From NCBI GenBank assembly GCA_016208915.1, contig JACQXE010000051.1, forward strand, positions 619-64,618: a stretch of 64,000 nucleotides of DNA. The letters are read 5' to 3'. This document shows, one piece after another, positions 24,786-51,238 of the stretch (the stretch's first letter is position 1; the number at the start of each line of letters is the position of its first letter). Both the position numbers and the translations under genes were made by a program. The notes under the pieces are model-generated. The model was not told the DNA's origin, made no database searches, and saw only the letters and a list, made by a program, of their open reading frames with translations. The DNA comes from Nitrospirota bacterium (lineage in GTDB: Bacteria > Nitrospirota > Thermodesulfovibrionia > Thermodesulfovibrionales > UBA1546).

Positions 24786-24937
24786 ACAACAGCATGTAGT
24801 ATTCTCGCTCATTCTCGTCCGCCTCGGCGGACTCCGAGGTATTTCGCCTCTCAGTAATTCTTATTCTTATTCTTATTCTTATTCTTACTGTCGGAATATC
24901 GGCGAAATAAAACCGCTTAAATACCACATGCTATTGT
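24786..24937 (-). repeat. Structured intergenic element, copy 1
   Basis: Outer stem + TCGCTCATTCTC-hairpin-TCCGAGG + inner stem + CCGCTTAAAT; (ATTCTT)5 in loop. Confidence 0.8.
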
Positions 24938-24963
24938 TTTGAATTGATCAAAAGGAGGGTTAA

Positions 24964-26163
24964 ATGAAGATTGTTCTTGCATATTCAGGAGGGCTTGACA
25001 CATCTGTTGCAATAAAGTGGCTTAAGGAAACCTATAATGCAGAGGTTATTGCCTTTTGTGCAGACCTTGGTCAGGGAGAAGACCTTAATGCAGCAAGAAA
25101 AAAAGCATTAGGCACAGGCGCATCAAAGGTCTATATTGAAGACCTGAGAGAAGAGTTTGTGAAGAATTACATATTCCCAATGTTAAGGGCAAGTGCTGTA
25201 TATGAAGGCGTCTATCTCTTGGGCACATCTATTGCACGCCCGCTCATAGCAAAGAGACAGATAGAGATAGCTGAGAAAGAAAAGGCAGGCGCTGTCTCCC
25301 ATGGCGCCACAGGGAAGGGAAATGATCAGGTGAGGTTTGAGCTTACATACTATGCATTAAAGCCTGACATCAAGGTAATCTCGCCGTGGCGTGAATGGCC
25401 TTTTGACTCAAGGCAGTCACTTATAAAGTATGCTGCAAAACACAGGATACCTGTTACTGCGACAAAGAAAAAACCCTATAGCACAGACAGAAATCTTTTT
25501 CATATAAGTTACGAGGGCGGGATACTCGAGGACCCATGGAAAGAACCGCCTTCAGATATGTTTGCAATGACAGTCCCTCCCCAGAAGGCGCCGGATAAAA
25601 CATCCTATTTAGATATAACATATGACAAAGGCAATCCTGTTGCGCTAAATAGCAAGAGAATGTCTCCGGCAAAATTGCTCGATAGGCTCAACAATATCGC
25701 CGGCAAAAATGGAATCGGCAGGGTTGATATGGTAGAAAACAGATATGTCGGCATGAAATCGCGCGGCATATATGAAACCCCGGGAGGGACAGCGCTTCAT
25801 ATTGCGCACAGGGCAGTTGAATCCATAACTCTTGACAGGGAGGTTATGCACCTGAGGGATTCCTTGGTGCCGAGATACGCTGAGTTGGTATATTATGGTT
25901 ACTGGTTTTCTCCGGAGCGGAAGATGCTTCAGACGCTTATAGATAAGATTCAGAATGTTGTGACAGGAACAGTAAGATTAAAACTTTATAAAGGCAATTG
26001 TCAGGTTGTTGGAAGGAAATCTCCAAGGTCGCTTTATCATCCTGAACTCGCAACATTCGAGGCTGAAAAGATATATAACCAGAAAGATGCAGAAGGATTT
26101 ATAAAACTGAATGCCCTGAGGCTGAAGATAGCAAGAATAACAAATAAAGGATTCAAGGGGTAG
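24964..26163 (+). CDS. argG: Argininosuccinate synthase
   Basis: [34 protein letters not shown]. Confidence 0.97.
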
Positions 26164-26236
26164 AGGTGTCAAGGGATCGAGCGAGACGCTGAGAAACAAA
26201 TCACTCGAACCCTCGAATCCTTGACCACTATTAAAC

Positions 26237-27322
26237 ATGTCTGACCTTAAATACTGGATTGCCTTGACAGAGGTCCCTGATATAGGGCCTGTGACAGCAA
26301 GGAAACTGCTTGCTGTCTACAAAAAACCTGAAGATATATTCAGCGCTTCGCAGAAAGAGCTTCGGAGCGTAGAAGGAATAAGCGCAAGAAAGGCAAAAAA
26401 CCTAAAGGAATATTCAGGCTGGGAAAGTATAGAGAGGCAGATTAAAAAACTCGAGAATAAAGGGATAAGGGTAGTAACATTAAGGAGTGACGACTATCCT
26501 GAAGCATTCAGAGAAATAGAAGATACTCCGCTCATTCTCTATGTAAAAGGCAATATAGAGCGTGATGACAGATATGCTGTTGCAGTTGTCGGCTCAAGAA
26601 AACTTACTCCATATGGCCAGTTTGTCGCTGAAAAACTGTCATCAGAACTTTCTTCAATAGGAATGACTATTGTCAGCGGCATGGCAAGGGGGATTGATAC
26701 CGCAGCTCATAAGGCAGCCATAAACTCTGGCGGCAGAAGCATTGCTGTATTGGGTTCCGGGATTGATGTGCCATATCCTCCTGAAAATAAGATTCTGATG
26801 GATAAGATAGCCAATTCAGGATATGTTATGAGCGAGTTTCCTCCCGGCACACAGCCTGAGAGAGAAAATTTTCCCAGAAGGAACAGGCTTATAAGCGCAT
26901 TGTCTCTCGGCGTGCTTGTTGTGGAGGCAACTGCTGACAGCGGTTCATTAATCACAGCGAATTATGCAATGGAGCAGGGTAAAGAGGTCTTTGCCGTGCC
27001 GGGCAATATTAACTCCAAAAATTCAGAGGGTACAAATACCCTTATAAAAAATGGCGCAAAACTTGTTCAGACTATGGAAGATATAATAGAGGAACTTGCG
27101 CTTGTGCTTAGAGGCTTCATAAAGTCAAAAGTAAAATCAAAGATAGTACTTTCAGATGAGGAGAAAAGGGTTTGTGATATAATGACACCAGAACCAAAAC
27201 ATATTGATATGCTCTCAAGAGAGAGCGGAATGCCTGCGTCAAAGTTGCTCGGCATTCTCCTCCACCTCGAATTAAAAGGCGTTGTGAAGCAGGTTGAGGG
27301 CAAAAAATTCTATCTGCTATAA
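26237..27322 (+). CDS. dprA: DNA-processing protein DprA
   Basis: VVGSR, IVSGMARGID..AH, FPRRNRLISAL. Confidence 0.95.
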   Translation: MSDLKYWIALTEVPDIGPVTARKLLAVYKKPEDIFSASQKELRSVEGISARKAKNLKEYSGWESIERQIKKLENKGIRVVTLRSDDYPEAFREIEDTPLILYVKGNIERDDRYAVAVVGSRKLTPYGQFVAEKLSSELSSIGMTIVSGMARGIDTAAHKAAINSGGRSIAVLGSGIDVPYPPENKILMDKIANSGYVMSEFPPGTQPERENFPRRNRLISALSLGVLVVEATADSGSLITANYAMEQGKEVFAVPGNINSKNSEGTNTLIKNGAKLVQTMEDIIEELALVLRGFIKSKVKSKIVLSDEEKRVCDIMTPEPKHIDMLSRESGMPASKLLGILLHLELKGVVKQVEGKKFYLL

Positions 27323-27343
27323 AAACAGGAGGCAACAGAACAG

Positions 27344-33615: not shown

Positions 33616-35840
<2,225 letters not shown>

Positions 35841-35857
35841 TTGAAAAGGAATTTATT

Positions 35858-36456: not shown

Positions 36457-37095
36457 ATGAAAAACAAAAAACTCATTGAGATTTACAAAAGATTATATAA
36501 ATCCTTTGGTCCTCAGCACTGGTGGCCGGGTGATACTCCTTTTGAGGTGGCTGTGGGTGCGATACTTACCCAGAACACGAACTGGGGGAATGTTGAAAAG
36601 GCGATAAACAACCTCAAGAGAGAAAAACTTCTTAATGCAAAGGCAATCCATAAGATGCCTGTAAATAAACTGGCTTCACTCATAAGGCCTGCGGGTTATT
36701 TTAATGTGAAAGCAAAGCGTCTGAAATCATTTATTGATTTTCTTATGAACGATTACCATGGAAGCATGGGAAAAATGAGAAAGGGCGAGATGTATTCCCT
36801 GAGAGAAAAACTTTTAAGTGTGAATGGCATTGGCCCTGAGACAGCCGATTCAATCCTTCTCTTTGCGCTTGCTAAGCCCATCTTTGTGATAGATGCATAT
36901 ACCAAGAGAGTTCTTTCAAGGCATGATATACTTGATCACGATGAATCTTATGATAAATTTCAGGAACTTTTCCATTCATCTTTAAAAAAAGATGTTAAAC
37001 TCTTTAATGAGTATCATGCGCTTTTTGTTAGGGTTGGAAAAACTTTCTGTAAAACAAAACCGGTTTGTGGTGAATGTCCTTTGAATTCGATATGA
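36457..37095 (+). CDS. Endonuclease III-related HhH-GPD protein
   Basis: GPQHWWP, AILTQNTNW, GIGPETADSI, C-x4-PVC..CPL. Confidence 0.88.
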   Translation: MKNKKLIEIYKRLYKSFGPQHWWPGDTPFEVAVGAILTQNTNWGNVEKAINNLKREKLLNAKAIHKMPVNKLASLIRPAGYFNVKAKRLKSFIDFLMNDYHGSMGKMRKGEMYSLREKLLSVNGIGPETADSILLFALAKPIFVIDAYTKRVLSRHDILDHDESYDKFQELFHSSLKKDVKLFNEYHALFVRVGKTFCKTKPVCGECPLNSI

Positions 37096-37098
37096 CGG

Positions 37099-37214
37099 AC
37101 AGGCAAGGCATAACATCCTCGCTCATTCTCGGTCGTTCCAACCTCCGAGGTGAATTCTGTCCCGTCTTAAGGCTGGCAGAATTCAAAGCCGCTCAAATGT
37201 TATACCTTGCCTGT
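37099..37214 (-). repeat. Structured intergenic element, copy 2
   Basis: Same conserved core and nested stems. Confidence 0.8.
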
Positions 37215-37245
37215 TTTGTCTATAATAAAGAGTGTAGGATTTAGG

Positions 37246-38079
37246 ATGAAAACCTTATCTCTAGGTTACTCTCCATGCCCCAATGATACATTTATCTTCT
37301 ACGGTCTTGTGCATGCCAAGATAGATACAGACAATCTGCAATTCAAGGAAATCCTTCTTGATGTCGAGACTCTGAACCAGATGGCTGTTAAGGGCGAGCT
37401 CGATATCACAAAGGTCTCCTTTAATGCATTCGGAAATCTCAGGGACAAGTATTGCCTGTTACGCTCAGGCGGAGCATTGGGCAGGGGATGCGGGCCTCTT
37501 GTCGTATCTCTTAAAGGATATGAGATGAAAGATTTGAAAGGCAAGAAGATTGCTATTCCTGGAAGAATGACAACAGCATATCTTCTTCTTCAGTTATTCG
37601 ACCCTTCTTTTAAGGATAATGTAAAGATTATGGCATTCAGCGATATTATGGATGCTGTTAAAAAAGGCGAGGTTGATGCAGGGCTTGTCATCCATGAGAG
37701 CAGGTTTACTTATAGGTCCTATGGACTTAAGAAGGTTATAGACCTCGGTAAGTGGTGGGAAGAGGAAACAGGACTTCCTATCCCTTTAGGATGTATTCTT
37801 GCCAAGAGAACTCTCGGAACCGATTTGATACACAGAATAAGCAACCTGATAAAGAAGAGCGTTATCTTTGCAATGAGCAAGAGAAATGAGCCTAAAAAAT
37901 ACATTAAAAAGCATTCTCAGGAATTCAAGGATTCTGTTATAGATGCCCATATAAATCTTTATGTAAATGATTACACCGTAGATATCGGCGAGGACGGCGT
38001 TATGGCTGTAAGGCTGCTTTTTGATATGGCAGAGAAAAAGGGAATAATTAAAAAATCATCAACTCCGATATTTATTTAG
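37246..38079 (+). CDS. mqnD: 1,4-dihydroxy-6-naphthoate synthase
   Basis: GYSPCPNDTFIF, GALGRGCGP, IHESRFTY, HINLYVN. Confidence 0.93.
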   Translation: MKTLSLGYSPCPNDTFIFYGLVHAKIDTDNLQFKEILLDVETLNQMAVKGELDITKVSFNAFGNLRDKYCLLRSGGALGRGCGPLVVSLKGYEMKDLKGKKIAIPGRMTTAYLLLQLFDPSFKDNVKIMAFSDIMDAVKKGEVDAGLVIHESRFTYRSYGLKKVIDLGKWWEEETGLPIPLGCILAKRTLGTDLIHRISNLIKKSVIFAMSKRNEPKKYIKKHSQEFKDSVIDAHINLYVNDYTVDIGEDGVMAVRLLFDMAEKKGIIKKSSTPIFI

Positions 38080-38104
38080 CTTTTTTCAATGAAAAGTTTA
38101 AATA

Positions 38105-38295
38105 TGAGAGGGAGCTTTCTTTTTGCTCATTCCCTGCCTGCCGCCTGCCTGCCGGTAGGCAGGGCCGGCAGGTCGGCCTTTCGGCCTGCGAGGTTTTTGC
38201 CTTACCCCCCCTAAAATCCCCCCTTGATAAGGGGGGACTAAGGGGGGGTGTTGAACTATCGGCAAAAAAATCCGCTCAAAGAAAGCTCCCTCTCA
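38105..38295 (-). repeat. Structured intergenic element, copy 3, with nested palindromes
   Basis: Perfect outer stem; nested CCTGCCTGCCGGTAGGCAGG and CCCCCCTT..AAGGGGGG. Confidence 0.8.
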
Positions 38296-38316
38296 AAAAA
38301 ACAATAATAATTGCCA

Positions 38317-39345
38317 ATGCGCCGAATCCTTCACATAGACATGGATGCTTTTTTTGCTGCTGTTGAGCGGAAGCGGCATCCTGAACTGGCAGGCAAACCT
38401 GTTGTAATAGGCGGGAGTGGAGACCCCAGAGAAAGGGGTGTTGTCTCAACAGCGTCTTATGAAGCGAGAAAATTCGGTATCCGTTCTGCAATGCCTCTGA
38501 GGACTGCGTACAAACTCTGCCCGGAAGCAATTTTTCTTTCTGTGGATTATGAGGAATATTCAAGGGTTTCGGGAGAGGTCAAGAATATTCTCAGGGAGTT
38601 CAGCCCGGTGATGGAAGATGTGGGTATTGATGAGGCATTTCTTGATATTTCAGAGAGACCTGAACTGTCGGAGGATATAGGAAGAAAGCTAAAAGACGTG
38701 ATAAAAAATAAACTTGATCTTACCTGCTCAGTAGGTGTTGCACCGAACAAGCTGCTTGCAAAGATTGCATCTGAAATGCAGAAGCCTGACGGTCTTACTA
38801 TAATCACTGAAGGGGATATGGAAAAACTTGTCTGGCCATTACATGTAAGAAAGCTCTGGGGAGTTGGTCCTAAAACAGAGATGCATCTTAAAGGTATCGG
38901 CATAAAAACGATAGGTGAGCTTGCAGCAGTGCCGATTGAAAGATTAAAAGAACAGTTTGGAAATTCTTATGGAAATTATCTCTATGAAGCGTCAAGAGGC
39001 ATTGATGAAACTCCGCTCATAACCCACTGGGAGCCTAAGTCATCAAGCAGGGAAATCACATTCCAGAGGGATACAAATGACTGGCAGACGATTGCAAGGA
39101 CACTCGCAGATCTTACAAAGAAAGTTGCCGATGATATGAGGCATTCGGGTTATCTGTGCAGGACAGTTACAGTTAAGATAAGATTTGAAGATTTTACGAC
39201 CTATACGAGGGCAAAGACATTGTCCGAATTCACAGACTCAACAGAGGTGATAAGAAAAGCAGCCTTTGAGGCATTAGGTAGGTTCGAATTAAAAAACAAG
39301 GTAAGGCTGATTGGGGCCAGGGTCAGTAATTTTAAGAAAGTTTAA
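38317..39345 (+). CDS. dinB: DNA polymerase IV
   Basis: HIDMDAFFA, SYEARKFG, IDEAFLD, KPDG. Confidence 0.95.
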   Translation: MRRILHIDMDAFFAAVERKRHPELAGKPVVIGGSGDPRERGVVSTASYEARKFGIRSAMPLRTAYKLCPEAIFLSVDYEEYSRVSGEVKNILREFSPVMEDVGIDEAFLDISERPELSEDIGRKLKDVIKNKLDLTCSVGVAPNKLLAKIASEMQKPDGLTIITEGDMEKLVWPLHVRKLWGVGPKTEMHLKGIGIKTIGELAAVPIERLKEQFGNSYGNYLYEASRGIDETPLITHWEPKSSSREITFQRDTNDWQTIARTLADLTKKVADDMRHSGYLCRTVTVKIRFEDFTTYTRAKTLSEFTDSTEVIRKAAFEALGRFELKNKVRLIGARVSNFKKV

Positions 39346-39448
39346 TTCTGATTTTCGTGTTGCTGAAATAAAAACAGTAAGCTATACTTTATAATTATTA
39401 ATTTTTGCTCGGGTATGTTGTCAAAATATTGAATTGGAGACCCAGACA

Positions 39449-40711
39449 ATGCCTTTCTTCGGTGAGCTTTTCGTAAGCGAGATTTTAAGAAAGCCGGTGC
39501 TCGATCCCAAGGGAGAAGAGATAGGCAAGGTTAAAGACCTGATTATCGTTAAGGGCGAGCCCTTGCCTAAGGTATCGAATCTGCTTATTGAAAGAAAGCG
39601 CAAGCTCTTTAATCTTTCATGGACAGAACTGAATATCTTTAATAAGAGAATAATCTCTGCAAATATTTACAGCGAAAATCTGCAACCTTATGAGTTTAGA
39701 GAGGATGCGCTCCTTCTGGTAAGAGATATCTTTGATAAACAGATAGTCGATGCAAACGGTGCAAAGGTGGTCAGGGTGAATGATGTAAAGCTTGAAGGGC
39801 TTAATACTGAGGCTGTGCTCATAGCCGTTGATGTTGGTATGAGAGGGATAATGAGAAGGCTGGGAGTTGAGAGAGGCGGCGAAGACCTTATGCGGCTGTT
39901 CAGATCACATCTGCCGTACAATCTTATAAGCTGGAATTATATCCAGCCGCTTGCGCCAAAGCTAACTGCTATTTCATTAACAGTGCCGAGGCAAATGGTT
40001 TCGGAACTGCACCCTGCGGATTTAGCAGCAATAATAAGCCAGGTCTCTCACAAGGAAGGCGCCACATTCTTTCAAGACCTTGATGTTGAGACAGCTGCAG
40101 AGGCCTTGTCTGAACTTGAGCCTGATACTCAGGCAGCGATAATAACAGGCATGGATACAGAAAAGGCTGCTGACATAATAGAAGAAATGCCTCCTGATGA
40201 GGCAGCTGATGTAATAAGCGACCTGTCTGTAGAAAAGGCTCAGGAAATTTTGGAAAGCCTTGAGAAGGAAGACGCCGAGGACATACAAGAACTGTTAGGT
40301 CATGAAGAGGATTCTGCAGGTGGTGTTATGACAAATGAGTTCATAGCATACAGGCCTGAGATAACTGTAAAAGAGGCTATTGATAAGTTCAGACAGGATG
40401 CAGAAGAGGTAGAGACGGTCTATTATATATATGTCACAGACGATGAAGAGAAACTCAGGGGAGTCGTCTCTCTAAGGGATATTCTGCTTGCATCGCCTGT
40501 TACGAAACTCTCGGATATAATGGAAACCAAGCTAAAGACAGTTGCTCCGGAGACTGATGAGATGCAGGTTGCAGGGATTATTTCAAAATATAATCTTGTT
40601 GCCATTCCTGTCATTGACAGCGAGGGATATATGCTCGGTATAGTAACAATTGATGATATCATAGACAGAATTCTGCCGCCGGCAGCAAAACGCAAGAGGA
40701 GGAAGGTGTGA
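39449..40711 (+). CDS. PRC-barrel / MgtE N-domain / CBS protein
   Basis: LHPADLA, MPPDEAAD, SAGGVMT, CBS pair; no TM domain. Confidence 0.85.
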   Translation: MPFFGELFVSEILRKPVLDPKGEEIGKVKDLIIVKGEPLPKVSNLLIERKRKLFNLSWTELNIFNKRIISANIYSENLQPYEFREDALLLVRDIFDKQIVDANGAKVVRVNDVKLEGLNTEAVLIAVDVGMRGIMRRLGVERGGEDLMRLFRSHLPYNLISWNYIQPLAPKLTAISLTVPRQMVSELHPADLAAIISQVSHKEGATFFQDLDVETAAEALSELEPDTQAAIITGMDTEKAADIIEEMPPDEAADVISDLSVEKAQEILESLEKEDAEDIQELLGHEEDSAGGVMTNEFIAYRPEITVKEAIDKFRQDAEEVETVYYIYVTDDEEKLRGVVSLRDILLASPVTKLSDIMETKLKTVAPETDEMQVAGIISKYNLVAIPVIDSEGYMLGIVTIDDIIDRILPPAAKRKRRKV

Positions 40712-41949
40712 GGCTGTACAGAAAAATAGCCTTATTTATTGCCGTTATGGGGCCGGGTATAATTACCGCCAACATAGATAATGACGCGAGCGGCATAACA
40801 ACCTATTCTGTCGCAGGGGCAAGATTTGGATACGCGCTTCTCTGGACACTTATCCCCACAACAATAGCGCTTGTTGTCATACAAGAGATGGTGGCAAGAA
40901 TGGGTGTTGTCACAGGCAAGGGTCTTTCAGACCTGATAAGGGAAAATTATGGTGTGAGGTCAACATTCTATATGATGCTGGGTCTTCTTGTCGCAAATTT
41001 TGGAAATACAATTGCAAATCTTGCAGGGTGGGCAGCGAGTATGGAGATATTCGGCTTGAGCAAATATGTTATGGTGCCTGTTGGCGCAATCGGCATATGG
41101 ATATTAGTGACTAAGGGAAGCTACAGGTTTGTTGAAAGGATACTTTTGTTCGCCTGTCTCCTTTATTTCGGATATGTGCTCTCGGGGTTTTTAGCAAAAC
41201 CTGACTGGATGCCTGTTTTTAAGAGTACTATCACTCCGCAGATAAAATGGAACTCTGAATATATAATGCTCAGCATAGCGATAATCGGGACGACAATAAC
41301 ACCATGGATGCAGTTTTATCTCCAGTCTTCAATAGCAGAGAAGGGCATAAGAAAAGAGGAATATAAGGCCTCGAGACTTGATGTGATTATTGGATGTTCA
41401 ATAACGGATATAATCGCATTTTTTATTATGGTTACATGTGCTGTCACCCTTTTCCCTGCCGGGATAAGGATAAACGAGGCATCAGAGGCAGCTATTGCCC
41501 TCAAACCATTGGCTGGAGAGTATGCATCATTTATCTTCGCCCTATGCCTTGCAAACGGTTCACTTTTAGGAGCGATAATAGTGCCATTGGCAACTGCCTA
41601 TTATATCTGCGAGGCAATGGGATGGGAAGCAGGGGTTAATAAGACATTTAAAGAGGCGCCTCAGTTTATGTGGATATATACGTTGACAATAGCGCTGGCA
41701 TCATTTGTGATCTTAATACCCGGAGCGCCGCTGGTTTTTTTAATGGTTTTGTCAGCTGTGATTAATGGACTGTTGCTGCCATTCGTTCTTGTTTATGCCT
41801 TATTGCTTGTCAATAATAAAAAATTAATGGGAGAATACACCAATCCAAAAAGTTACAATTACATTTCATGGGGAACAGTGGTAGTTATAATCGGGCTTAC
41901 AGCATTTCTGGTTTTTATAAATATTATTCCAGCAGGGGGAAAGATCTAA
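40708..41949 (+). CDS. Nramp-family divalent metal transporter
   Basis: GPGIITANIDNDASGI, GTTITPWMQF; coupled to the MgtE-N gene. Confidence 0.88.
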   Translation: MRLYRKIALFIAVMGPGIITANIDNDASGITTYSVAGARFGYALLWTLIPTTIALVVIQEMVARMGVVTGKGLSDLIRENYGVRSTFYMMLGLLVANFGNTIANLAGWAASMEIFGLSKYVMVPVGAIGIWILVTKGSYRFVERILLFACLLYFGYVLSGFLAKPDWMPVFKSTITPQIKWNSEYIMLSIAIIGTTITPWMQFYLQSSIAEKGIRKEEYKASRLDVIIGCSITDIIAFFIMVTCAVTLFPAGIRINEASEAAIALKPLAGEYASFIFALCLANGSLLGAIIVPLATAYYICEAMGWEAGVNKTFKEAPQFMWIYTLTIALASFVILIPGAPLVFLMVLSAVINGLLLPFVLVYALLLVNNKKLMGEYTNPKSYNYISWGTVVVIIGLTAFLVFINIIPAGGKI

Positions 41950-42046
41950 TTATCGTGGGTTTTAGCCTGTGATTTTAAGACAAAGAAATGGTAGAGAATT
42001 TCGATAAATTAGAACGTAGATAAGGGAAAAGAGAACCTCAGAACTA

Positions 42047-43303
42047 ATGAAACAGCGAGACCAGTTATTCAATAACAAACTAACACATACGTCTATCGTC
42101 AATGAAGTATTTGGAAAAGACTTGCTATTGCTTAACTCAGTTAATGAACTTTTTGAGCTTGAACTTGCATTGATAGAATCTCGTTCCTTGTCTCGTCAAG
42201 AATTATTATTACGTTCTGCTTTTTTTAAATCTGTCGATGGCAACTTAACAAACCACTATAAAATATGCCGACCATTTGATGGTCATATTCCCGATGATAG
42301 GTCTGCACAAACTCAAGCATATTTTCAAGAAGGGAAATATGCAACTGGTTACGCAACTCATGGACTCTTTCCATATCGTGGAAAGTTCCATCCACAGCTT
42401 ATCAAAGGTCTGCTCAATATCCTTGAGATTAAACGAGGAGATATTGTTCTTGACCCGATGTGTGGAAGTGGAACACTAAATGTTGAAGCTTCTTTATTAG
42501 GAATTGATTCTATCGGCGTGGATGTTAGCCCGTTTTGCCGACTATTGGCGAGGGTAAAATGTGAAAGTTTGTCCTTAACGCCTGAGTATGTTGAAGCGAT
42601 GTCAAACAATCCAGACAAATGGTTTAATTATTTTTCAACCGGCAATATATACGATAAATTAAGAAAGATCAGGGAACCCGAGAAGCTCAAAATTTATGAA
42701 CTGGTTTTATTAGCTTATCTTGATGCAATGGGCTATGCCCGTAGAGTTACCAAGGCGAGCCACAAAGAACTATTTGAAAAAGTTTTGAAACGCTATCAAG
42801 TTTCTGTTCTTCAAACAATTACAAATTCAGTCATAAAATCATCTCAGCGTGGAACTCCAAATATTTTGGCGGGCGATGCGCGCTGTCTGCCGCTTGATGA
42901 TTCAAGCATTGATTGTATTATCACTTCTCCACCGTATTCCTTCGCGATTGATTACGCAGAAAATGACGCCCCTCAACTTGCATTTCTTGGCTATAATGTT
43001 GATGAACTTCGCACTCAAATGATAGGGCTTGCCGGTAGAACTAAACAACAAAAACTACAGCGTTATTTTGATGACATGAAAACGGTTGCTCAAGAAATTG
43101 TCAGGGTGTTAAAATCTCAGAAGTTTGCTATTATAATCATAGGTTCAAACACAAATCAGACGGGAGGAATTCGTTTAGAGCAAACAATTATAGACCATTT
43201 TGATAATTTTAAGGCATCGCTTGTAAAAAGCATTATTAAGCCTATTAAAGGCATGAGAAATACTATGAAAGATGAATATATATTAATTTTCCAAAAAAAC
43301 TGA
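42047..43303 (+). CDS. DNA amino-methyltransferase, likely N4-cytosine
   Basis: HGLFPYRGKFHPQL, DPMCGSGT then TSPPY. Confidence 0.85.
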   Translation: MKQRDQLFNNKLTHTSIVNEVFGKDLLLLNSVNELFELELALIESRSLSRQELLLRSAFFKSVDGNLTNHYKICRPFDGHIPDDRSAQTQAYFQEGKYATGYATHGLFPYRGKFHPQLIKGLLNILEIKRGDIVLDPMCGSGTLNVEASLLGIDSIGVDVSPFCRLLARVKCESLSLTPEYVEAMSNNPDKWFNYFSTGNIYDKLRKIREPEKLKIYELVLLAYLDAMGYARRVTKASHKELFEKVLKRYQVSVLQTITNSVIKSSQRGTPNILAGDARCLPLDDSSIDCIITSPPYSFAIDYAENDAPQLAFLGYNVDELRTQMIGLAGRTKQQKLQRYFDDMKTVAQEIVRVLKSQKFAIIIIGSNTNQTGGIRLEQTIIDHFDNFKASLVKSIIKPIKGMRNTMKDEYILIFQKN

Positions 43304-44279
43304 TGAGAACCAACGAAGAAAAATTTACTACCGTTATACAAAAGAACACTTTCTATTTTTTCAATCCCGATTTTGAGCAACGCTATGAAGTTCAAAATCT
43401 GAATGCCCTTAACAACCTCTTACAACTTGTTCAAACTAAAGTTCAGCAAGAAGGTGTTAAAAAAATGAGTTTTTTGAAGAGTTGCTGTTACATCCTAATG
43501 GGTTGAAGGCGCTTTTAGCCCTCAATGGTTTTTCAAATGAAAGCCTAAAGAGATTAACCACATTTCTCAGAATTATTGATGATGCAGTGTTAGACACATT
43601 GACATTTAAATCCCACTGGCTTAAATCCGAAAATCGTGAGGAAATCAAAGAATGGTCTGATGCAACGATTGAAAAACTCGTTAGGGACAATCAATATTTT
43701 CGTAAGGGGCTGGTAAACCTATTCTTTGAGGGAGCTTCTAATCCTCTTTTAGGACGTGTGCTCCCGCCATTTGAACTCCGAAAGCTGAGTATTGATAAAC
43801 TCAGCTTTCGACCGGAACCAATGATTGATACTCTCGTGCGATATAAGGAAAAAGGATCGTATTCCGGTTTAAAAGAGAACAACCCTGAAACAGTCATTGA
43901 GAAGATTCTGAAGAACCTCGGCCTAAAGTATACGAGCGGTGATTTACAAAGATTAGTTGGTGTCGTTGATGATAAAAAAAGAACAATGGATTTTATCATC
44001 CCTGATCAAACCAATGCAAAAATTATTGCGGAGAGTTCTTTTTTGGTAACTACTTCCTCCGGTCAAGGTGATAAGTCAAAAACAGAGATATCAATTCGTG
44101 ATTTAATTTCTGAGCATTATCCTCAAGCTAAGTTTATCGGTTTTGTTGATGGTATTGGTTGGTATGCAAGACAAAATGATCTTAAGCGTATGGTTTCTGC
44201 ATACGATGATGTATTTACTTTCCATCCTGACGAGCTTCAACGGTTCAATCAACTGCTTGTGGAGACTTTTGGACTATGA
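43303..44279 (+). pseudogene. Type II restriction endonuclease (PD-(D/E)XK-like), frameshifted at 43459-43475
   Basis: ORFs 43303-43506 and 43482-44279 join by a -1 shift; MDFIIP..AESS, FVDGIGW; lies between two methyltransferases. Confidence 0.7.
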
Positions 44280-45256
44280 ATCTCAATGCTATTCTTCATG
44301 GCGATTGTTTAGAAATCCTGCGCACGATTCCAGACAATAGCGTGGATATGACTTTCGCTGATCCACCATTCAACCTTAACAAAAAATATAACAGTTACAG
44401 TGACCGCAGGAGCTTGGATACTTATTTGTTTTGGTGTAAGCAGTGGCTTACTGAAATGGTTCGTATTACAAAACCAACCGGCAGTATTTTTGTCCATAAT
44501 ATCCCAAAGTGGCTTACATATTATGCTTCATTTCTTAATGAGATTGCCGACTTTAAACATTGGATTTCGTGGGATGCAATGAGCACACCACTTGGAAAAT
44601 CTTTGATGCCTACTCATTATGGCATTTTGTTCTATGCAAAAGACAGAAAGTTAAACAAGTTTTATGAAGTCCGCCATCCGCATAAGCGTTGCCGAAAGTG
44701 TAATGTACTCTTGAAAGATTACGGGGGCAAGAAAGCCGGGCTACATCCATTTGGACCTTTGCTTTCTGATGTTTGGACAGATTTACACAGAATCAAACAC
44801 GCTAAAAATAGAGATGCACACCCGTGTCAGCTACCCGAAACAATTCTTGAACGTCTGATTCTAATGACTACTGACGAAAGGGATATCATTCTTGACCCTT
44901 TTAATGGAACGGGAACAACTGTAATAGCTGCAAAGCGTCTTGGAAGAAAATACATCGGGATTGAACTCGACAAACAATATGTTGCTATTGCTGAAGAAAA
45001 GCTCAGAAATGTTCGGCCAGATTCTCATATTGAGGGTGTTTGGGTTAGCAAGTATCTTAATGGAATAGCTACCATTCGAGATAAAGACTGGGATGTTCTT
45101 CAATCGCATTTTGACATTCCCAATCCAATTCCTCTGCTTGAATATAAAAACATTGTTTATAAAAATGGGAAGATTCATAAACATACACATATCATGGACA
45201 AAACAGAGAATCTTCTTGTGCTTTCATTTGATGATGTGATGTTTGTAGAGAGGTAG
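44276..45256 (+). CDS. Beta-class DNA amino-methyltransferase
   Basis: FADPPFN, HPCQLP, LDPFNGTGTT. Confidence 0.9.
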   Translation: MNLNAILHGDCLEILRTIPDNSVDMTFADPPFNLNKKYNSYSDRRSLDTYLFWCKQWLTEMVRITKPTGSIFVHNIPKWLTYYASFLNEIADFKHWISWDAMSTPLGKSLMPTHYGILFYAKDRKLNKFYEVRHPHKRCRKCNVLLKDYGGKKAGLHPFGPLLSDVWTDLHRIKHAKNRDAHPCQLPETILERLILMTTDERDIILDPFNGTGTTVIAAKRLGRKYIGIELDKQYVAIAEEKLRNVRPDSHIEGVWVSKYLNGIATIRDKDWDVLQSHFDIPNPIPLLEYKNIVYKNGKIHKHTHIMDKTENLLVLSFDDVMFVER

Positions 45257-45299
45257 AGCGATTGGAAAAGTCTGAAGCTAAATAGGATAAGGAGATTTA

Positions 45300-46358
45300 A
45301 TGGTAAAGGCAATAGAATGGAAAGACGGCAAGGTCATAATGCTTGACCAGAGCAAACTGCCGATAGAGGTGCAATATATAGAATGTACAAATTATGAGAT
45401 TATCGCTGAGGGCATAAGAAAACTCTGGATAAGGGGTGCTCCTGCAATTGGAATCGCTGCAGCAATGGGGATTGCGCTTGGTGTACAGGATATAAAGGCA
45501 AAGAGCTATAAAGAACTCATCAAAGGGCTTGACCCTGTATTTAATACATTGCTTTTAACAAGACCGACTGCAGTAAATATAAAATGGGCTGTTGAAAGGA
45601 TAAAGAAATTTCTTCGTGATAATAAAAATGAATCAGTTCAGAGACTGAAAGAACTCCTTATCGAGGAGGCACAGAAGATACACAAAGAAGACATAGAGGT
45701 TAACAAGGCAATTGGAAGGTGGGGATCCCAGTTTATAAAAGATGGGGATACAGTCCTTACTCACTGTAATGCTGGCAGTCTTGCAACAGGCGGATACGGA
45801 ACAGCAACAGCCCCGATACTGGTTGCAATGGAGCAGGGTAAAAAGATCCAGGTCATAGCTGACGAGACAAGACCTGTGCTTCAGGGGGCAAGGCTTACAG
45901 CATGGGAACTCATGCAGGCAGGTGTGCCTGTCACCTTGATAACAGACAATTCCGCAGGCGCCCTCATGAAAAAGGGAGAGATAGATCTTGCTATTGTAGG
46001 CACTGACAGGACTGTCAGAAACGGGGACGTAGCCAATAAGATTGGAACCTATTCGGTTGCAGTGCTATGCAAGGAGCACAAGATTCCTTTTTATGTTGCA
46101 GCGCCTATGAGCAGCATTGATTTTTCGATTCCTAAAGGAGACAGGATTCCCATAGAGGAGAGGAGCGCTGAAGAGGTTACCCATGTATTTAATAAATGTC
46201 AGATTGCTCCTGATGGGGTTCGAGTAAGGAATATGGCATTTGATGTTACACCTGCAAAATATATTACAGCTATAATTACAGAGAGGGGTGCATTCAGACC
46301 AAAAGACTTGAGAAAATTAATGAAAAAAGATATTAACCTTGATGAAATAAGGCTCTGA
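45300..46358 (+). CDS. mtnA: Methylthioribose-1-phosphate isomerase
   Basis: [35 protein letters not shown]. Confidence 0.95.
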
Positions 46359-46369
46359 AATAACAACTA

Positions 46370-47359
46370 ATGACTACTGATAGTAAAAGAATGGCTATAA
46401 AAAAGGTTTTTGATGCGTATGAGAGGGAATTAAGTCTCGTTGAGGTTAAACTTGAAGGACTGTTCCAGAGCGAAGCTCCTCTTATACCCCTTATAGGCAA
46501 GTATCTTCTTGACGGCGGGGGAAAGAGGCTCAGACCTCTTTTCCTGCTTTCGAGTGCAAGACTTACAGGATACAATGGTGATGAACATATAATGCTTGCA
46601 AGCATTATAGAGTTGATACACATGTCATCGTTGTTGCATGACGATGTAGTTGACGGCGCCCAGATAAGAAGGGGGAGGCCTGCAGCACATTCCATATGGG
46701 GAAACCAGATCGTCATTCTGGTCGGGGATTTTCTTTATTCGAATGCGCTCAAGAAAGCTGTCTCTTTCAAAAGTCAGAGGATAATGGAGGCGCTTTCCGA
46801 GGCTACAACAGGTATGACAGAGGGCGAGATACTTCAGCTTCAGAAAACTGCTGACATAAGCATTACAGAGGATGAATATATAAAAATAATTTCTGCCAAG
46901 ACAGGCTATCTAATATCAGCAGCATGCATGATAGGCGCAATACTGGGCAAAGTCTCCAGTGAAAAAGAGGATGCCCTTGCAATGTTCGGGCTTAAGGCAG
47001 GGACAGCGTTTCAGATGACGGATGATATTCTTGATTATATGGCTGAAGAGAGCGAACTTGGTAAAAGGCTTGGAAAAGACATCGAAGAAGGGAAAATAAC
47101 ACTGCCTCTGATCTATTTATTCAGAAACGCATCTGACAGCGAGAAGATAGAGATAAAACAGATAATAGGGCACTTCTCAAACGAGGGGCTGAAAAGAGTT
47201 TTATCATTGTTTAAACAGTATAAAGTTTTAGAAAAGTCGCTTAACAGGGCACGCAGAATTGTCGAGGAAGCGAAATCTCAACTCTCGGTATTCCCCGACT
47301 CTGCAGAAAAAGATCTTCTGCTCAGTATCGCTGAATATGCAATCTATAGGGAGAAATGA
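46370..47359 (+). CDS. Polyprenyl diphosphate synthase
   Basis: [23 protein letters not shown]. Confidence 0.92.
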
Positions 47360-47360
47360 T

Positions 47361-47870
47361 ATGCATTCGCTGGTGAAACTCGCAAAAGAAGCGATTGAGA
47401 TATACGTTAAGGAAGGCTTTGAAATATCGCCTTCAACTGATCTAATCCCTGAGATGAGGGAAAAGGCAGGTGTTTTTGTTTCAATCAAAAAGCACGGAGA
47501 ACTAAGGGGCTGTATCGGGACCTTTATGCCTGTATGCAGAAATGTTGCATCAGAAATCATAAAGAATGCAATATCTGCTGCAACTCAGGATCCGAGATTC
47601 AATCCTGTTCAGCCTGCAGAGCTAAATGATTTGGTCTACTCTGTGGATATCCTTACTCCTCCTGAAGAAGTGAAGGATATAAAGAAAGAGCTTGATCCGA
47701 AAAAATATGGAGTAATAGTTTCTAAGGGTCTTAGGAAGGGATTGCTTCTTCCGGACTTGGAAGGCGTAGATACGGTTGAGGAACAGTTAAGTATCGTAAA
47801 AATGAAGGGAGGCATCTCTCAGGAAGAGGATGTAAAGATTTTCAGATTTGAGGTCAAGAGGTATAGATAA
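47361..47870 (+). CDS. AmmeMemoRadiSam system protein A (AMMECR1 domain)
   Basis: GVFVS..LRGCIGT, DPRF, GLLLP. Confidence 0.88.
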
Positions 47871-49339
47871 TGGGTAAGGAGATCCCATTAAAAGGCAGTC
47901 TTAAAAGTCAAAATCTTCCAAGGGTTCTGGTGCACCTTAACAGAAAGCGGGCAACAGGGACTCTTGAGATCAGCACGCCTTACTTTTCAAAAAAGGTATA
48001 CATAGTAAAGGGTGATGCTATCTTTGCCGCATCTACATATGAAGATGACAGACTTGGCGAGATGCTTCTTAAGGCAGGAAAGATCACAATAGAGCAGTAC
48101 GATAAGTCTGTGGAGCTTTTAAAAACCACGAAAAAACGTCAGGGTGCGATACTGGTAGAACTCGGCTATTTGACCCCAAAAGACCTTTTCTGGGGGGTTA
48201 AATATCAGGTTAGAGAGATAATCTACAGTCTCTTCCAGCTTGAGGATAACGAATATGAATTCATAGAAGGGAAAGTTCCTGCTGACGAGGTCATCACGCT
48301 TAAGATGAGCATGGGTAATCTTATTTATGAAGGTGTAAAGAGAATAGATAATTGGACAAGGATAAGAAGGGAAATGCCTGATACAGGTGCGGTTCTGAAG
48401 CTCTCAGAGGACCCGATGAGCTTATATCAGAATGTAGAATTAAGCCCTGAGGATAAGAAGATGCTTCCGCTGATAGACAGCAGTAAGACAATAAAAGAGA
48501 TTGTTGACAGCTCATGGACTAACTCATTCGAGGCGATGAAGACTCTTTATGTGCTTTTGGCTGTAGGAATCCTTGAGGCAAAAAAGGATGCGCATGAAGA
48601 GGCAAAAGAGGGCGAGATGATATCCCTTGCTGATATGCTTCAGCCTTTTGCTGAAGAAGAGGATGCATTTATAAAAAGAGTTGATGAAATTTATTCTAAC
48701 CTCGGCAGGCTCAGGCTGGATGAGCTTATTGAAGTTAATGAAGCTTCCGACCCTGAAACTGTGAAAAAGAATTATTACAGACTTATGAGGGAATTTCACC
48801 CTGATAGATGCTTCAGTGCGTCAGATACAACATTGAAGGACAAGCTTACAACTATATGTGATTCCATAACGAATGCATATGATACACTCAGGGATGATGA
48901 GAGCAGGAAGAAATATTTCAGCTCGTTTGCTGGTCCTATGAAAGGAAAAGAGATTAGCTCTGGGGAAAGGGCAGTAATCAATTTGCAAAAGGCTGAAGAA
49001 CAGTTCAAGAAAGGCGTCAAGGAGTTCAAAACAGGCAGTTTCAATGAAGCTGCTGACTCTTTCAGGGAAGCTGCAACAATAAATTCCAAACGCTCACAGT
49101 ACTGGAGCTATCTGTCATTAGCGCTTTCAAAACTTCCCAATAGATTGCAGGAGGCAGAAGATGCCCTGCTTGAGGCAATAAAGCTGGAGCCTTTAAATGG
49201 TGAAAACTATGCAAACCTTGGTCTTTTGTATCTGAAGGAAGGACTCAAAAAGAAAGCAGCAGATCAGTTTGAAAAGGCATTGAAACTTGATCCCGGGAAT
49301 GTGAGGGCACAGAAGGGATTGAAACAGTTGAAGGGATAG
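47870..49339 (+). CDS. DUF4388-like / DnaJ / TPR protein
   Basis: RLGEML, FHPD J-domain motif, C-terminal TPRs. Confidence 0.8.
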   Translation: MGKEIPLKGSLKSQNLPRVLVHLNRKRATGTLEISTPYFSKKVYIVKGDAIFAASTYEDDRLGEMLLKAGKITIEQYDKSVELLKTTKKRQGAILVELGYLTPKDLFWGVKYQVREIIYSLFQLEDNEYEFIEGKVPADEVITLKMSMGNLIYEGVKRIDNWTRIRREMPDTGAVLKLSEDPMSLYQNVELSPEDKKMLPLIDSSKTIKEIVDSSWTNSFEAMKTLYVLLAVGILEAKKDAHEEAKEGEMISLADMLQPFAEEEDAFIKRVDEIYSNLGRLRLDELIEVNEASDPETVKKNYYRLMREFHPDRCFSASDTTLKDKLTTICDSITNAYDTLRDDESRKKYFSSFAGPMKGKEISSGERAVINLQKAEEQFKKGVKEFKTGSFNEAADSFREAATINSKRSQYWSYLSLALSKLPNRLQEAEDALLEAIKLEPLNGENYANLGLLYLKEGLKKKAADQFEKALKLDPGNVRAQKGLKQLKG

Positions 49340-49340
49340 C

Positions 49341-49471
49341 ATAGAGGGGATAGCATTTTCGCTCATTCTCGGTCGTTCCGACCTCCGAGGAATTTTGCCT
49401 CTTTTATTATTTGTATTACATACTGTCTGAATATCGGCAAAATAATGCCGCTCAAATACTATTCCCTCTAT
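49341..49471 (-). repeat. Structured intergenic element, copy 4
   Basis: Same conserved core and nested stems. Confidence 0.8.
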
Positions 49472-49477
49472 AGTCTG

Positions 49478-49963
49478 TTAAGGATTATTTTTTCTCTTAA
49501 ACTCTCCGCTTTTTCCGCTTCGTTTCTCAACAAGCATAATGTCAGAGATAGTCATCTCCTTATCAACTGCCTTGCACATATCGTAGATTGTAAGGGCAGC
49601 GGCAGATACAGCAGTGAGGGCTTCCATCTCCACACCTGTCTGCCCGGTTATCTTTACCCTCGACTCAATCACTATCCTGTTTTTTCTCTTATCGAGATTA
49701 AAAGTGATGTCTGCTGATGTTATGTTCAGCGGGTGGCAGAGAGGAATAATATCCGCTGTCCTTTTGGCAGCCATTATTCCTGCAATCTTGGCAGTGCTGA
49801 GAACATCCCCTTTTTGAACGCTGCCTTCGGTTATTAGCGTGAAGGTTTCTTTCTTCATGTACACAGAGCCTTTTGCAACAGCCTCTCTCTGTGTCGAAGG
49901 CTTTGAGCCCACATCAACCATCTTGGGCAGTCCTTTTTTATCTATGTGAGTGAGTTTTTTCAT
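49478..49963 (-). CDS. moaC: Cyclic pyranopterin monophosphate synthase
   Basis: LTH, MVDV, IPLCHPL, TGVEMEAL, YDMCK. Confidence 0.95.
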   Translation of the reverse strand: MKKLTHIDKKGLPKMVDVGSKPSTQREAVAKGSVYMKKETFTLITEGSVQKGDVLSTAKIAGIMAAKRTADIIPLCHPLNITSADITFNLDKRKNRIVIESRVKITGQTGVEMEALTAVSAAALTIYDMCKAVDKEMTISDIMLVEKRSGKSGEFKRKNNP

Positions 49964-50017
49964 GAAATTAATATAACACCTGTAAAGATTTGAATCAAAC
50001 AAATATAGAAAAGATTT

Positions 50018-50683
50018 TTATTTGCAGCTGTTGCATGTGCAAGAAATGGAATTGCTTTTAGCCTTCTCGAATGCCTCCTGCCCTTCTCTGAATGAGAGCA
50101 CTGCGATAAATATTGCGCCTGCTGAATCAAGCCATCCAATGTCTGTTATTTCATAACCTATACTCGAGAAAAAAAGAACAGCAGAAAGATACATGCATGC
50201 CTTTGTGCAGTTCGCATCTGCAAGTATTGCCTGAGAATTAAGCTGCCTGCCGACCTTGAGCTTATAGTGTATAAGAAACCACATTGAAAGGATGGACAGA
50301 ACAGAGATTATAATTCCCCAGAATGTAGTCTCGGGCTTGTGCCTATTGTAAAGGTTTACCATAGAGCTTGCGATAAGTCCTGCAAAGAGGATATAAAATG
50401 CAGTGCCTGTGACTTTAAGCGCATCCTTCTCAAACCTGTCAAGGGTTTCGTTCCCGTTTCTTTTCACGCGCTTGATCATATGCCATATCCCTATACCGGA
50501 TATGACCTCAACGAAAGAATCTATGCCAAAGCCGAAAAGAGCCAGTGTGCCGTCTTCCATGCCGAAAAATACAGATACAATGCCTTCTAATATGTTGTAA
50601 AAAATCGTTATCAGAGCCAACGCATAAGCCAGATTATAAAGATGAGAGTTTTTCTTGGAAAGATTTAATGAAATCGTTGCCAT
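50018..50683 (-). CDS. Cation efflux (CDF-like) membrane protein
   Basis: FGIDSFVE, ILADA, multiple TM helices, Cys-rich tail. Confidence 0.75.
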   Translation of the reverse strand: MATISLNLSKKNSHLYNLAYALALITIFYNILEGIVSVFFGMEDGTLALFGFGIDSFVEVISGIGIWHMIKRVKRNGNETLDRFEKDALKVTGTAFYILFAGLIASSMVNLYNRHKPETTFWGIIISVLSILSMWFLIHYKLKVGRQLNSQAILADANCTKACMYLSAVLFFSSIGYEITDIGWLDSAGAIFIAVLSFREGQEAFEKAKSNSISCTCNSCK

Positions 50684-50747
50684 TTAATATTTTAACAGAT
50701 TATTCTTTTCTTGCCCCAGGATTAATTAAACGGATACAATATTGAAT

Positions 50748-50942
50748 ATGAATATAATGATTGATGAGGAAAAGTGCATTGGCTGCAGAACATGCGAGCA
50801 GATATGTCCTGCTGTTTTCCATCTCAATGAGGTGACCGGAAAGTCAGAGATTGTGGACCCTGACGGATGCGATTATGCCGGCTGCTGCGAGGCGGCAGAA
50901 GAGAACTGTCCTGTGGAGGCGATAATTCTTGGGGATAATTAA
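50748..50942 (+). CDS. Single-cluster ferredoxin
   Basis: CIGCRTCEQICP...CPVEAI. Confidence 0.88.
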   Translation: MNIMIDEEKCIGCRTCEQICPAVFHLNEVTGKSEIVDPDGCDYAGCCEAAEENCPVEAIILGDN

Positions 50943-51090
50943 TCAAGCATATTCATAGTTGTCCAAAACAAGAATTATGAAAAGGCTGAACGCTTCATAA
51001 ATACGATGAATCGACAGGATATTAAAATGTGCAACCTCGTATTTCTTCTGCATTCAGCCTTTTTGAAAATTGTTTTGAACAGTCTGATTA

Positions 51091-51238
51091 AGGATGGGTA
51101 TGGTATTTGAGCGGATTTTTTGCTCGCAATTCCTACAGCAAAAAAACAGAATATCAAAGCGGGCAAAACCTCGGAGGGCGGAACGACCGACCTGCCTGCT
51201 GGCAGGCAGGGAATGAGCGAAAATATTGTGCCCATCCT
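51091..51238 (+). repeat. Structured intergenic element, copy 5 (opposite orientation)
   Basis: TTTGAGCGG..CCTCGGAG..GAATGAGCGA with G.U-containing stems; nested CCTGCCTGCTGGCAGGCAGG. Confidence 0.8.

Follow-up and report, generated by a model that had tools for sequence, protein, structure and literature searches.

Dispersed intergenic repeats with a conserved three-way-junction core and variable ends in Nitrospirota and other phyla

Small palindromic repeats are usually lineage-specific and are defined by their conserved ends. ERIC, Correia (NEMIS) and BOX elements are small, dispersed and intergenic, are co-transcribed with neighbouring genes and fold as RNA into long hairpins, and internal insertions give rise to size variants of them; they carry conserved terminal inverted repeats, often with a TA duplication, and have a narrow host range. 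Here we describe a repeat element of about 130 bases that occurs in five copies in a stretch of 64,000 nucleotides from a Nitrospirota bacterium (contig JACQXE010000051.1; this whole stretch is referred to as the window) and in about 100 copies in the genome to which it belongs. Like ERIC, Correia and BOX elements it is small, dispersed, intergenic and hairpin-forming, with size variants that result from insertion, but it has no duplication or target motif, its termini are variable, its core is branched and made of three stems, and it is found in several phyla. Two marks of classical miniature inverted-repeat transposable elements (MITEs, deletion derivatives of DDE insertion sequences), conserved terminal inverted repeats identical to those of a parent insertion sequence and target-site duplication, are both wanting.

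The closest described kind of repeat are the REPINs, for which a single-stranded intermediate has been proposed, as have changes that compensate one another on the two sides of the hairpin (PMC3116915). The element shares with REPINs a size in the range of 100 bases, about 100 copies, intergenic positions in either orientation and a non-autonomous nature, as well as a predicted long hairpin in single-stranded DNA or mRNA with two-sided compensatory changes (PMC3116915). The architecture is reversed, however, since the ends of REPINs (the REPs) are conserved and their middle is variable, whereas the present element has variable ends and an invariant central junction. REPINs also adjoin their RAYT gene, while the RAYT-like genes of the home genome carry a different repeat and genomes with many copies lack Y1 transposases, and REPIN families are lineage-specific, in contrast to a core that spans phyla.

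Two other systems act through folded single strands. The ends of IS200/IS605 elements and their protein-less derivatives resemble the element in their strand-specific fold and in lacking both sequence-level terminal inverted repeats and target duplication. IS200/IS605 elements have two separate subterminal hairpins and a fixed target word, and their orientation follows replication; the element, by contrast, forms a single closed three-way junction with no target word and no skew-linked orientation. The attC sites of integrons likewise have a conserved fold with little sequence conservation, and their recognition, which is strand-selective, takes place on a folded single strand. They have AAC/GTT core sites and lie in tandem cassette arrays beside an integrase; the element has other conserved words and occurs as single copies between housekeeping genes, and an integrase was not specifically searched for.

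We give about an even chance to the reading that the five stretches in the window belong to a family of small non-autonomous mobile or selfish repeats that act through a folded single strand, a lifestyle that would be akin to that of REPINs, ERIC and Correia elements. The hallmark of the family is a branched core that is conserved and ends that are free; the family reaches about 100 copies per genome in unrelated phyla, including sites inside essential operons.

A dispersed family with a strand-specific three-way-junction fold

The window corresponds to C27:619-64618 of a genome of 2,513,032 bases in 88 contigs with 41.6% G+C. A strict regular expression retrieved 47 copies from this genome and an nhmmer profile gave 126 matches (E<=1e-3 in 2.51 Mb) on many contigs, of which 106 were near full length and 97 included both anchor motifs; the others were truncated, internally deleted or interrupted by repeats. 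The five copies that a sequence-only reading of the window had singled out are thus part of a dispersed family. The basic form measures about 110-150 bases, and nested modules extend it to about 240. A covariance model built from other copies of the same genome matched exactly these five copies in the window (E 5e-31 to 2e-16); a sixth match at 15378-15408 was weak (E 0.36) and was not counted as a copy. Direct reading and alignment agreed with the model on the layout that had been proposed. In the orientation of copy 5, the forward strand, it consists of a 5' arm, TTTGAGCGG, an inner hairpin, CCTCGGA, a short G+C-rich hairpin, GAGAATGAGCGA, three purines and a 3' arm that is complementary to the 5' arm in each of the five copies, even though, as had also been noted, the arms differ in sequence from copy to copy.

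RNAalifold was run on the 57 of the 97 copies that are no longer than 150 bases, and the structure was refined by hand and then counted on the same alignment. The fold is a three-way junction composed of the outer stem P1, a non-canonical GAGCGG/GAGCGA duplex and the hairpins P2 and P3. P1 has about 17 base pairs in this alignment, with UUU:AAA pairs at its inner end, and its length ranges from 13 to 29 base pairs (mode 17) in the 88 copies in which the end of the stem could be set. In the junction duplex G23.A and A24.G face the GA of GAGCGA and are followed by two G-C pairs, so that a short antiparallel duplex arises between the two direct GAGCG words. P2 is a variable hairpin of 8-11 base pairs, P3 has a CUCG:CGAG base, a GAG bulge and then a variable hairpin of 4-7 base pairs, and the AAUGA stretch is single-stranded.

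Covariation supports this fold. In the 57 copies 92.5% of the cells were paired compared to 78.8% after shuffling, and 300 cells were changed on both sides compared to 79; none of 500 shuffles reached either observed value, and sliding the partner columns lowered the paired cells to 33-50%. Double changes were found in 20 of 22 P1 pairs, six of eight lower P2 pairs and three of four upper P3 pairs. The CUCG:CGAG and GC:GC pairs never covary, and their pairing is therefore deduced from invariance only. The same held in other genomes, where an alignment of 91 matches from 77 of 80 loci (A3), fitted to a covariance model of 136 positions and 41 pairs (R1), was 91.9% paired and had 884 cells changed on both sides compared to 246 after shuffling, again unreached in 500 shuffles. 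An unannotated structured family with covarying stems, as the sequence-only reading had supposed, is therefore present within the genome and across phyla.

Both strands of six copies fold far better than their shuffles (z -3.2 to -9.3), and the mismatches within the stems distinguish between the strands. Over the first 16 positions of P1 in the 97 copies there were 131 G.T and 38 A.C combinations on the forward strand (binomial 4e-13), and 101 and 33 when position 2, commonly a wobble, was left aside. The asymmetry came mostly from positions 1-7 near the junction, positions 8-14 contributing 31 vs 17. Folding energy favoured the forward strand in 82 of 97 copies and was equal for the two strands in one. 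Within the stems of the five window copies we read about nine G.T and one A.C, close to an earlier manual count of about 10 and 2 from which a preferred folded strand had been suggested, a suggestion that the genome-wide counts bear out. The excess of G.U over A.C holds in all four gene contexts, whichever way the neighbours run: 55 to 8 between tandem genes to which the element is antisense, 35 to 10 between tandem genes in the sense orientation, 23 to 13 between convergent genes and 18 to 7 between divergent genes. In other genomes P1 gave 103 vs 34 in low-G+C copies and 36 vs 8 in high-G+C copies, and P2 gave 42 vs 8 and 15 vs 3 respectively, all of these being counts from a search model that itself prefers G.U. 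In a small sample of four orthologous pairs from congeneric species, all five substitutions in P1 (UUU:AAA included) keep the pairing of the forward strand.

The fold, its covariation and a terminator scan contradict the notion that the copies are ordinary intrinsic terminators or chance palindromes, which is almost certainly wrong. Copies do lie just downstream of stop codons, and the reverse strand of A+T-rich copies has a U-rich run after P3, but only one of the four copies in the scanned stretch (36500-52000) was flagged as terminator-like (copy 3, on the reverse strand only), and the 15 terminator-like sites of that stretch compare with 13.2 expected from shuffles. The U run is absent from the copies of G+C-rich hosts, 16 of the 97 copies lie between divergent gene starts and one copy in another genome lies between rpoB and rpoC. 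The element had been judged too complex for a simple terminator, and its elaborate three-stem core indeed far exceeds what a terminator needs.

In Rfam 15 at the gathering threshold the window matched only a tRNA (the gene at 14016-14088), and no family was matched by the element itself. Lowering the requirement to E<=10 for six copies and one G+C-rich copy brought up scattered sub-threshold matches of hairpin and miRNA type, none of them near threshold; the one match of low E, BSnc120 (32.5 bits vs 114), falls outside the element. Rfam includes models of hammerhead, twister, twister-sister, pistol, hatchet and HDV-like ribozymes. Searching the literature by sequence string gave unrelated primer matches only, and by words it gave no description of the family, supplementary files lying outside these searches.

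The element does share with hammerhead-like ribozymes three helices, an invariant core and tandem G.A pairs stacked on one helix, and differs from them in its core words. One might accordingly imagine a repeat that carries a new class of catalytic RNA, self-cleaving or other: about 25 nucleotides are invariant and unpaired or non-canonically paired, the tandem G.A lies next to a helix, the stems covary and the element is multi-copy. We regard this possibility, which was also raised by the sequence-only reading, as extremely doubtful, given that no Rfam ribozyme model matched at E up to 10, that the home genome (98.8% completeness) has no RVT_1 match and hence no reverse transcriptase of that family, that the orientation to genes is random and that nothing in the analysis points to catalysis.

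Nesting, spread across phyla and turnover of sites

Element copies are frequently decayed or invaded. A perfect G+C palindrome of 20 bases lies inside elements in 27 of its 28 genome occurrences (<=2 mismatches allowed), always after CCGA, at two different positions of the element, and on occasion it is nested within a copy of itself; its behaviour resembles that of a very small site-specific insert. A hairpin family with a C-tract and a G-tract has 63 copies in the genome, 41 of which stand alone and 22 of which lie in P2 loops of the element. Three other small repeats in all invade the element; some copies are broken up by a third repeat and by runs of CCGCCTCAGGCGG-type hairpins. About 10 of the 97 copies have an extra outer inverted extension beyond P1 (TTATGAAT...GTGGG, with an 8-base asymmetry), and the TTATGAAT extension also adjoins copies in two other genera. 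Such truncation, internal deletion and invasion are typical of selfish repeats.

R1 matched 30 of 41 genomes in a set of relatives (the home genome counted), including all 19 others of the same family, with 1 to at least 81 copies per genome. In an even sample of the phylum, scored under stricter filters with 22 candidates per genome, 12 of 151 genomes matched, most of them belonging to the same order; two large families (f23, f24), represented by 45 genomes, had no match. A scan with an exact pattern over one genome per species gave at least 116 stretches, of which 80 loci were listed. Most titles among the listed loci were Nitrospirae, Nitrospirota or Thermodesulfovibrionales; the other titles among the matches listed were Planctomycetota, Latescibacterota, Gemmatimonadetes, Parcubacteria, Saccharibacteria, Elusimicrobiales, Deltaproteobacteria, Desulfobacterales, Desulfobacteraceae, Thermodesulfobacteriota and, in one record, Nitrososphaerales. 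These labels are the depositors' titles, and mis-binning is possible. Whole-genome searches gave at least 96 matches in the genome titled Planctomycetota, 42 in that titled Gemmatimonadetes (G043), nine in Deltaproteobacteria, five in Latescibacterota and five in a Parcubacteria genome of 0.5 Mb (G045). Viral contigs gave only two pattern matches, and no blastn match was found in plasmid and phage collections.

The 91 matches that R1 confirmed in 77 of the 80 listed loci have a G+C content of 0.36-0.71, and the junction words are unchanged over this range. G+C-rich copies keep GAGCGG-N-UU, CCUCGGAG and CGAGAAUGAGCGA, with all three stems rewritten. Element G+C mostly tracks that of the host, and in six of 20 loci (e.g. 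L123, L134, L141) it is 13-23 points above that of the surroundings, which fits recent arrival. In the Parcubacteria-titled genome (L239, G045:C16) one copy lies in the sense orientation between rpoB and rpoC (5376-5517) and a second, inverted copy lies just after rpoC (9153-9298), both with 0.60 G+C in DNA of 0.37 G+C. The idea that these two inverted copies bracket rpoC, with rpoB upstream, as composite mobile cargo was rejected.

These comparisons also bear on whether processes at the DNA level alone, such as template switching and gene conversion between the arms, keep the stems complementary, the copies being inert relics with no function of the folded strand. P1 sequence similarity is unrelated to core similarity (Spearman -0.16, outer half), and in the subfamily with the outer extension the C64 copy has its core flipped relative to the extension when compared with the C62 and C83 copies, as would be compatible with recombination between arms. 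Such processes leave unexplained, however, the conservation of the junction words at G+C of 0.36-0.71, the covariation of the short stems P2 and P3 across phyla and the excess of G.U over A.C on one strand, and we find this account distinctly improbable.

Filled sites differ between species. Four sites filled in G001 were compared with up to five other species of one genus, in flanks about 92% identical. Site S1 is filled in G001 and G013 and unfilled in G014, G007 and G009; site A is filled in G001 and G009 and unfilled in G013, G014 and G007; site C is filled in G001 and G016 and unfilled in G009, G014 and G013; and site D is filled in G001 alone, with G009, G007 and G014 keeping only the 5' arm and TTTGA. 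Where the element is missing, the alleles have 5-55 unrelated bases instead, and the unfilled alleles of site C keep a word that resembles the outer extension. Sites C and D are best read as losses, and S1 and A as either gain or loss. Among contigs assembled from four DNA runs, one from a related population joins window position 50934 to 51244 with 11 other letters between, and copy 5 is thus absent from it. The empty sites in relatives that the sequence-only reading had proposed to look for exist in the sense that occupancy varies among species, but the unfilled alleles are not clean.

In a G+C-rich subfamily (L079, L086, L116, L129, L134, L147 and similar loci) the apical loops of P2 and P3 are AGGAU or AGGGAU within ACAGGAUGU-like hairpins, which we take to resemble binding hairpins of the CsrA type. 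A reading based on such GGA loops was dropped, as GGA stood in the P3 loop of four of 13 pattern-fitting G+C-rich copies and not in A+T-rich copies.

Genomic setting, candidate partners and possible mode of spread

Gene context was taken from our own crude caller of open reading frames (ORFs; 2300 ORFs, 87% coding). The 97 copies are intergenic, and typically 0-30 bases separate them from a stop codon and 15-40 from the following start; 37 lie between tandem genes encoded on the opposite strand and 23 between tandem genes that share the strand of the element, while 21 separate convergent genes and 16 divergent ones. Orientation showed no relation to the majority gene strand. With respect to local GC skew, which in a draft genome is only a proxy and which follows the gene strand in 67 of 87 windows, the 97 copies divided 41/56, 44/53 and 49/48 at 5, 10 and 20 kb, none of which is significant, and no replication-linked orientation was found.

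Several further candidates fell away. The core does not insert into a pre-existing P1 hairpin, as the genome has no core-less P1 hairpins (a search for them gave three stray matches, none with P1-like arms) and no palindrome is present at unfilled sites. Nor is the outer part of P1 copied from the target, since outer-stem words are absent from the unfilled orthologous sites. A coding reading of the conserved AUG was judged unlikely, given that the gene on the 3' side of the element points in the other direction in 58 of 97 copies. No conserved promoter is present in the element; words resembling promoters occur only in A+T-rich hosts, and a scan for them gave no excess.

If the family is one of selfish repeats, the element would spread, or be kept, through a folded single-stranded form of the forward strand. 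The invariant junction nucleotides would be the recognition site of a factor supplied in trans, with the stems serving only to present that site, and selection would preserve the three-way-junction fold of one strand while the sequence of P1 was free but kept paired. We infer both mobility itself and the part of the junction as a recognition site, and the single strand may be either DNA or RNA; none of the listed sequencing runs that hold the sequence is recorded as RNA. Since copies follow immediately on stop codons within operons, mRNAs also carry them as stable hairpins, and secondary effects on those transcripts are possible. The earlier proposal had been either an RNA family, possibly catalytic, or a mobile element of folded single-stranded DNA, and it is the mobile half that is better supported, by about 100 dispersed copies, site differences and a patchy distribution among phyla. 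Should the element be mobile, its mechanism may involve a common host enzyme.

A number of observations weigh against a mobile repeat. The nearest cores in the home genome differ by 7%, and the arms of those copies are quite different, so that no recent burst is visible there. No target-site duplication, base preference or target motif was found flanking the 88 copies with a settable P1 end, and no target duplication at the four orthologous filled and unfilled sites. Conservation is lowest at the termini, contrary to what is usual for transposon ends: between copies 49% of the positions in the outer half of P1 differ, independently of core similarity, and there is no terminal or flank consensus in the 88 copies. 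That orientation is independent of GC skew argues against single-stranded DNA transposition of the fork-dependent IS200/IS605 type. Filled alleles have 3-28 extra bases beyond P1 with no counterpart in the unfilled ones, and as the 'empty' alleles are uneven, two of the four resembling deletion remnants, loss is better shown than gain. No autonomous parent, transposase or reverse transcriptase linked to the element was found. The controls for covariation leave the relatedness of the copies in, and the cross-genome alignment was fitted to the model. Lastly, a cellular RNA function would also fit the retention of orthologous copies and the fact that about 25 nucleotides of the junction are strongly conserved from phylum to phylum.

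The main rival is accordingly a structured RNA with a role in the cell, either a protein-binding or processing module in transcripts or a multi-copy small RNA gene, maintained by selection at the level of the host. Freely covarying stems surround junction nucleotides that are invariant across phyla, the G.U asymmetry suits RNA, as do the substitutions in orthologous copies that preserve wobble pairing, P3 loops are often GNRA-like (GAAA, GUAA), orthologous sites keep copies in different species, and copies are tolerated in essential operons (rpoB-rpoC in one genome). Nevertheless, the orientation to genes is near random (37 antisense vs 23 sense in tandem contexts), the G.U bias is equal or stronger where host transcription yields the other strand, no conserved promoter is present, relatives have anywhere from 0 to about 100 copies, and truncated and invaded copies are common. 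On balance we consider a cellular RNA unlikely; if the element were a functional RNA, it would represent a widespread class missing from Rfam.

The sequence-only reading had also envisaged a co-occurring transposase, reverse transcriptase or nuclease, and none was found beside the element. In the 80 listed loci of other genomes no neighbour family recurred as a partner; the family with the largest cover was present at nine of 80, the largest clusters being ABC-transporter ATPases and two-component proteins, and other sampled clusters being TPR proteins, aconitase, DNA polymerase III delta', DHODH and aminotransferase. The neighbours of single-copy occurrences in five genomes with one or two matches were ordinary ORFs. 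The home genome has no half-elements that pair across a gene and no TnpB-type zinc ribbon. Apart from RAYT-like genes, none of its multi-copy ORF clusters (>=60% identity) is transposase-like in size or number, DDE Pfam families not having been searched one by one.

The home genome does have 10 Y1_Tnp matches, two of them IS200-like, seven diverged and RAYT-like (about 226 amino acids) and one weak, which raises the possibility that the element is mobilised as single-stranded DNA by a Y1 (HUH) tyrosine transposase, in the manner proposed for REPINs with RAYTs or for IS200/IS605 derivatives with TnpA, and with cleavage beside the two direct TGAGCG words. A RAYT-like gene is found in 25 of 30 relatives that bear the element and in four of 11 without it, a loose association; strand-specific folding and the lack of target duplication would suit such an enzyme, and at site D the remnant ends exactly after TTTGA. 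At least five of the seven RAYT-like genes are, however, bracketed by their own inverted repeat of the GGGACA...TCCC type, which is unrelated to the element; this is the classical REP-RAYT arrangement and is separate from it. No element lies within the immediate flanks of any of the seven, and the two IS200-like loci have none of its words. A protein query found no RAYT-like gene in G003 (10 copies, 100% complete), and PF01797 (Y1) gave no match in G043 with its 42 copies or in G045 with its five. Together with an orientation unbiased by GC skew and the lack of the empty P1 hairpins that excision would be expected to leave, this makes mobilisation by a Y1 enzyme very improbable.

A bolder proposal, which we hold to be improbable, is that the junction is the active centre of a new structured single-strand class, being either a self-processing RNA or DNA or the substrate of a widespread, unrecognised host enzyme. 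A protein-less element of 130 bases could in that case copy itself and cross phyla, which would be a new mode of mobility and not another MITE.

The window copies and associated repeats

The coordinates of the five window copies, their modules and related loci of the home genome are given in Table 1. TTTGAGCGG is exact in four of the five copies and reads TTTAAGCGG in copy 1. The inner hairpin starts with TTTTGCC and ends with GGCAAAA except in copy 2, which differs (GAATTC...). CCTCGGA is replaced by CCTCGCA in copy 3, and GAGAATGAGCGA varies to GGGAATGAGCAA in copy 3 and GGGAATGAGCGA in copy 5. Four copies have an exact GAATGAGCGA, and copy 3 departs from it at one position; when a single mismatch is tolerated the motif has nine matches in the window, five of which are the copies, compared to a shuffle mean of 4.4.

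According to the ORF list the folded strand of copies 1-3 is antisense to the flanking ORFs, which are on the + strand, as had been remarked before; copy 5 is antisense to its neighbours too, and copy 4 sits between convergent ORFs. Copy 1 is flanked by an ORF ending at 24775 and an ORF at 24964-26163, and copy 4 begins directly behind the stop codon of the ORF at 47870-49339.

Table 1 Location of element copies, nested modules and related loci. Plain coordinates are window positions; C-prefixed coordinates are contig positions in the home genome (G000).
Feature	Location	Strand	Remarks
Copy 1	24783..24940	-	111 bits, E 5e-27; P2 loop with AAGAAT-type hexamer run
Copy 2	37097..37216	-	95 bits, E 9e-23; short form, P2 = GAATTCTGCC...GGACAGAATTC
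Copy 3	38101..38299	-	71 bits, E 2e-16; long form with two nested modules
Doubled G+C-rich palindrome module (CCTGCC.../...GGCAGG type)	38133..38172	.	in copy 3, between P3 and the GAATGAG motif
C-tract/G-tract hairpin module	38214..38249	.	in P2 loop of copy 3; member of a separate repeat family
Copy 4	49337..49475	-	126 bits, E 5e-31; canonical form
Copy 5	51087..51242	+	86 bits, E 2e-20; opposite orientation on the contig
Single 20-base G+C palindrome module	51191..51210	.	in copy 5, after CCGA
GTCATTCC-type repeat sites	C7:13879-14033, C44:23587-23633, C47:4215-4262, C7:10793-10841
Extension-bearing subfamily, examples	C62:1652-1851, C64:102510-102704, C83:29713-29907, C18:37706-37910
RAYT-like genes	C34:11051-11722, C23:18472-19140, C14:37065-37727, C57:62-733, C24:60-719, C67:28492-29151, C71:9002-9622

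Further repeats were noted alongside these. The tandem hexamer run in the P2 loop of copy 1 occupies 24868-24890 and reads ATTCTT on the + strand. The hairpin with a C-tract and a G-tract has the form ACCCCCC..CCCCCCTT-loop-AAGGGGGG..GGGGGGT and is also present at about 1145-1215 of the window (genome C27:1788). In several copies the P2/P3 part contains, or has been replaced by, a further small repeat, GTCATTCC...GGAATCCAG...CTGGATTCC...GGAATGAC. The tRNA gene mentioned above is the sole Rfam match in the window. A family of seven paralogous ORFs (>=60% identity, some longer than 1300 amino acids) has one member at 20325-22010 (C27:20943-22628) and the others at six further loci.

Short-read contigs of a source-like run end at element copies, namely at window positions 38154-38208, 49383-49433 and about 51184, and the repeats thus fragment assemblies of the organism. 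As it disrupts short-read assemblies, the element should be masked or modelled in the intergenic annotation of these uncultured groundwater lineages, and covariance model R1 is a ready tool for masking or annotating it.

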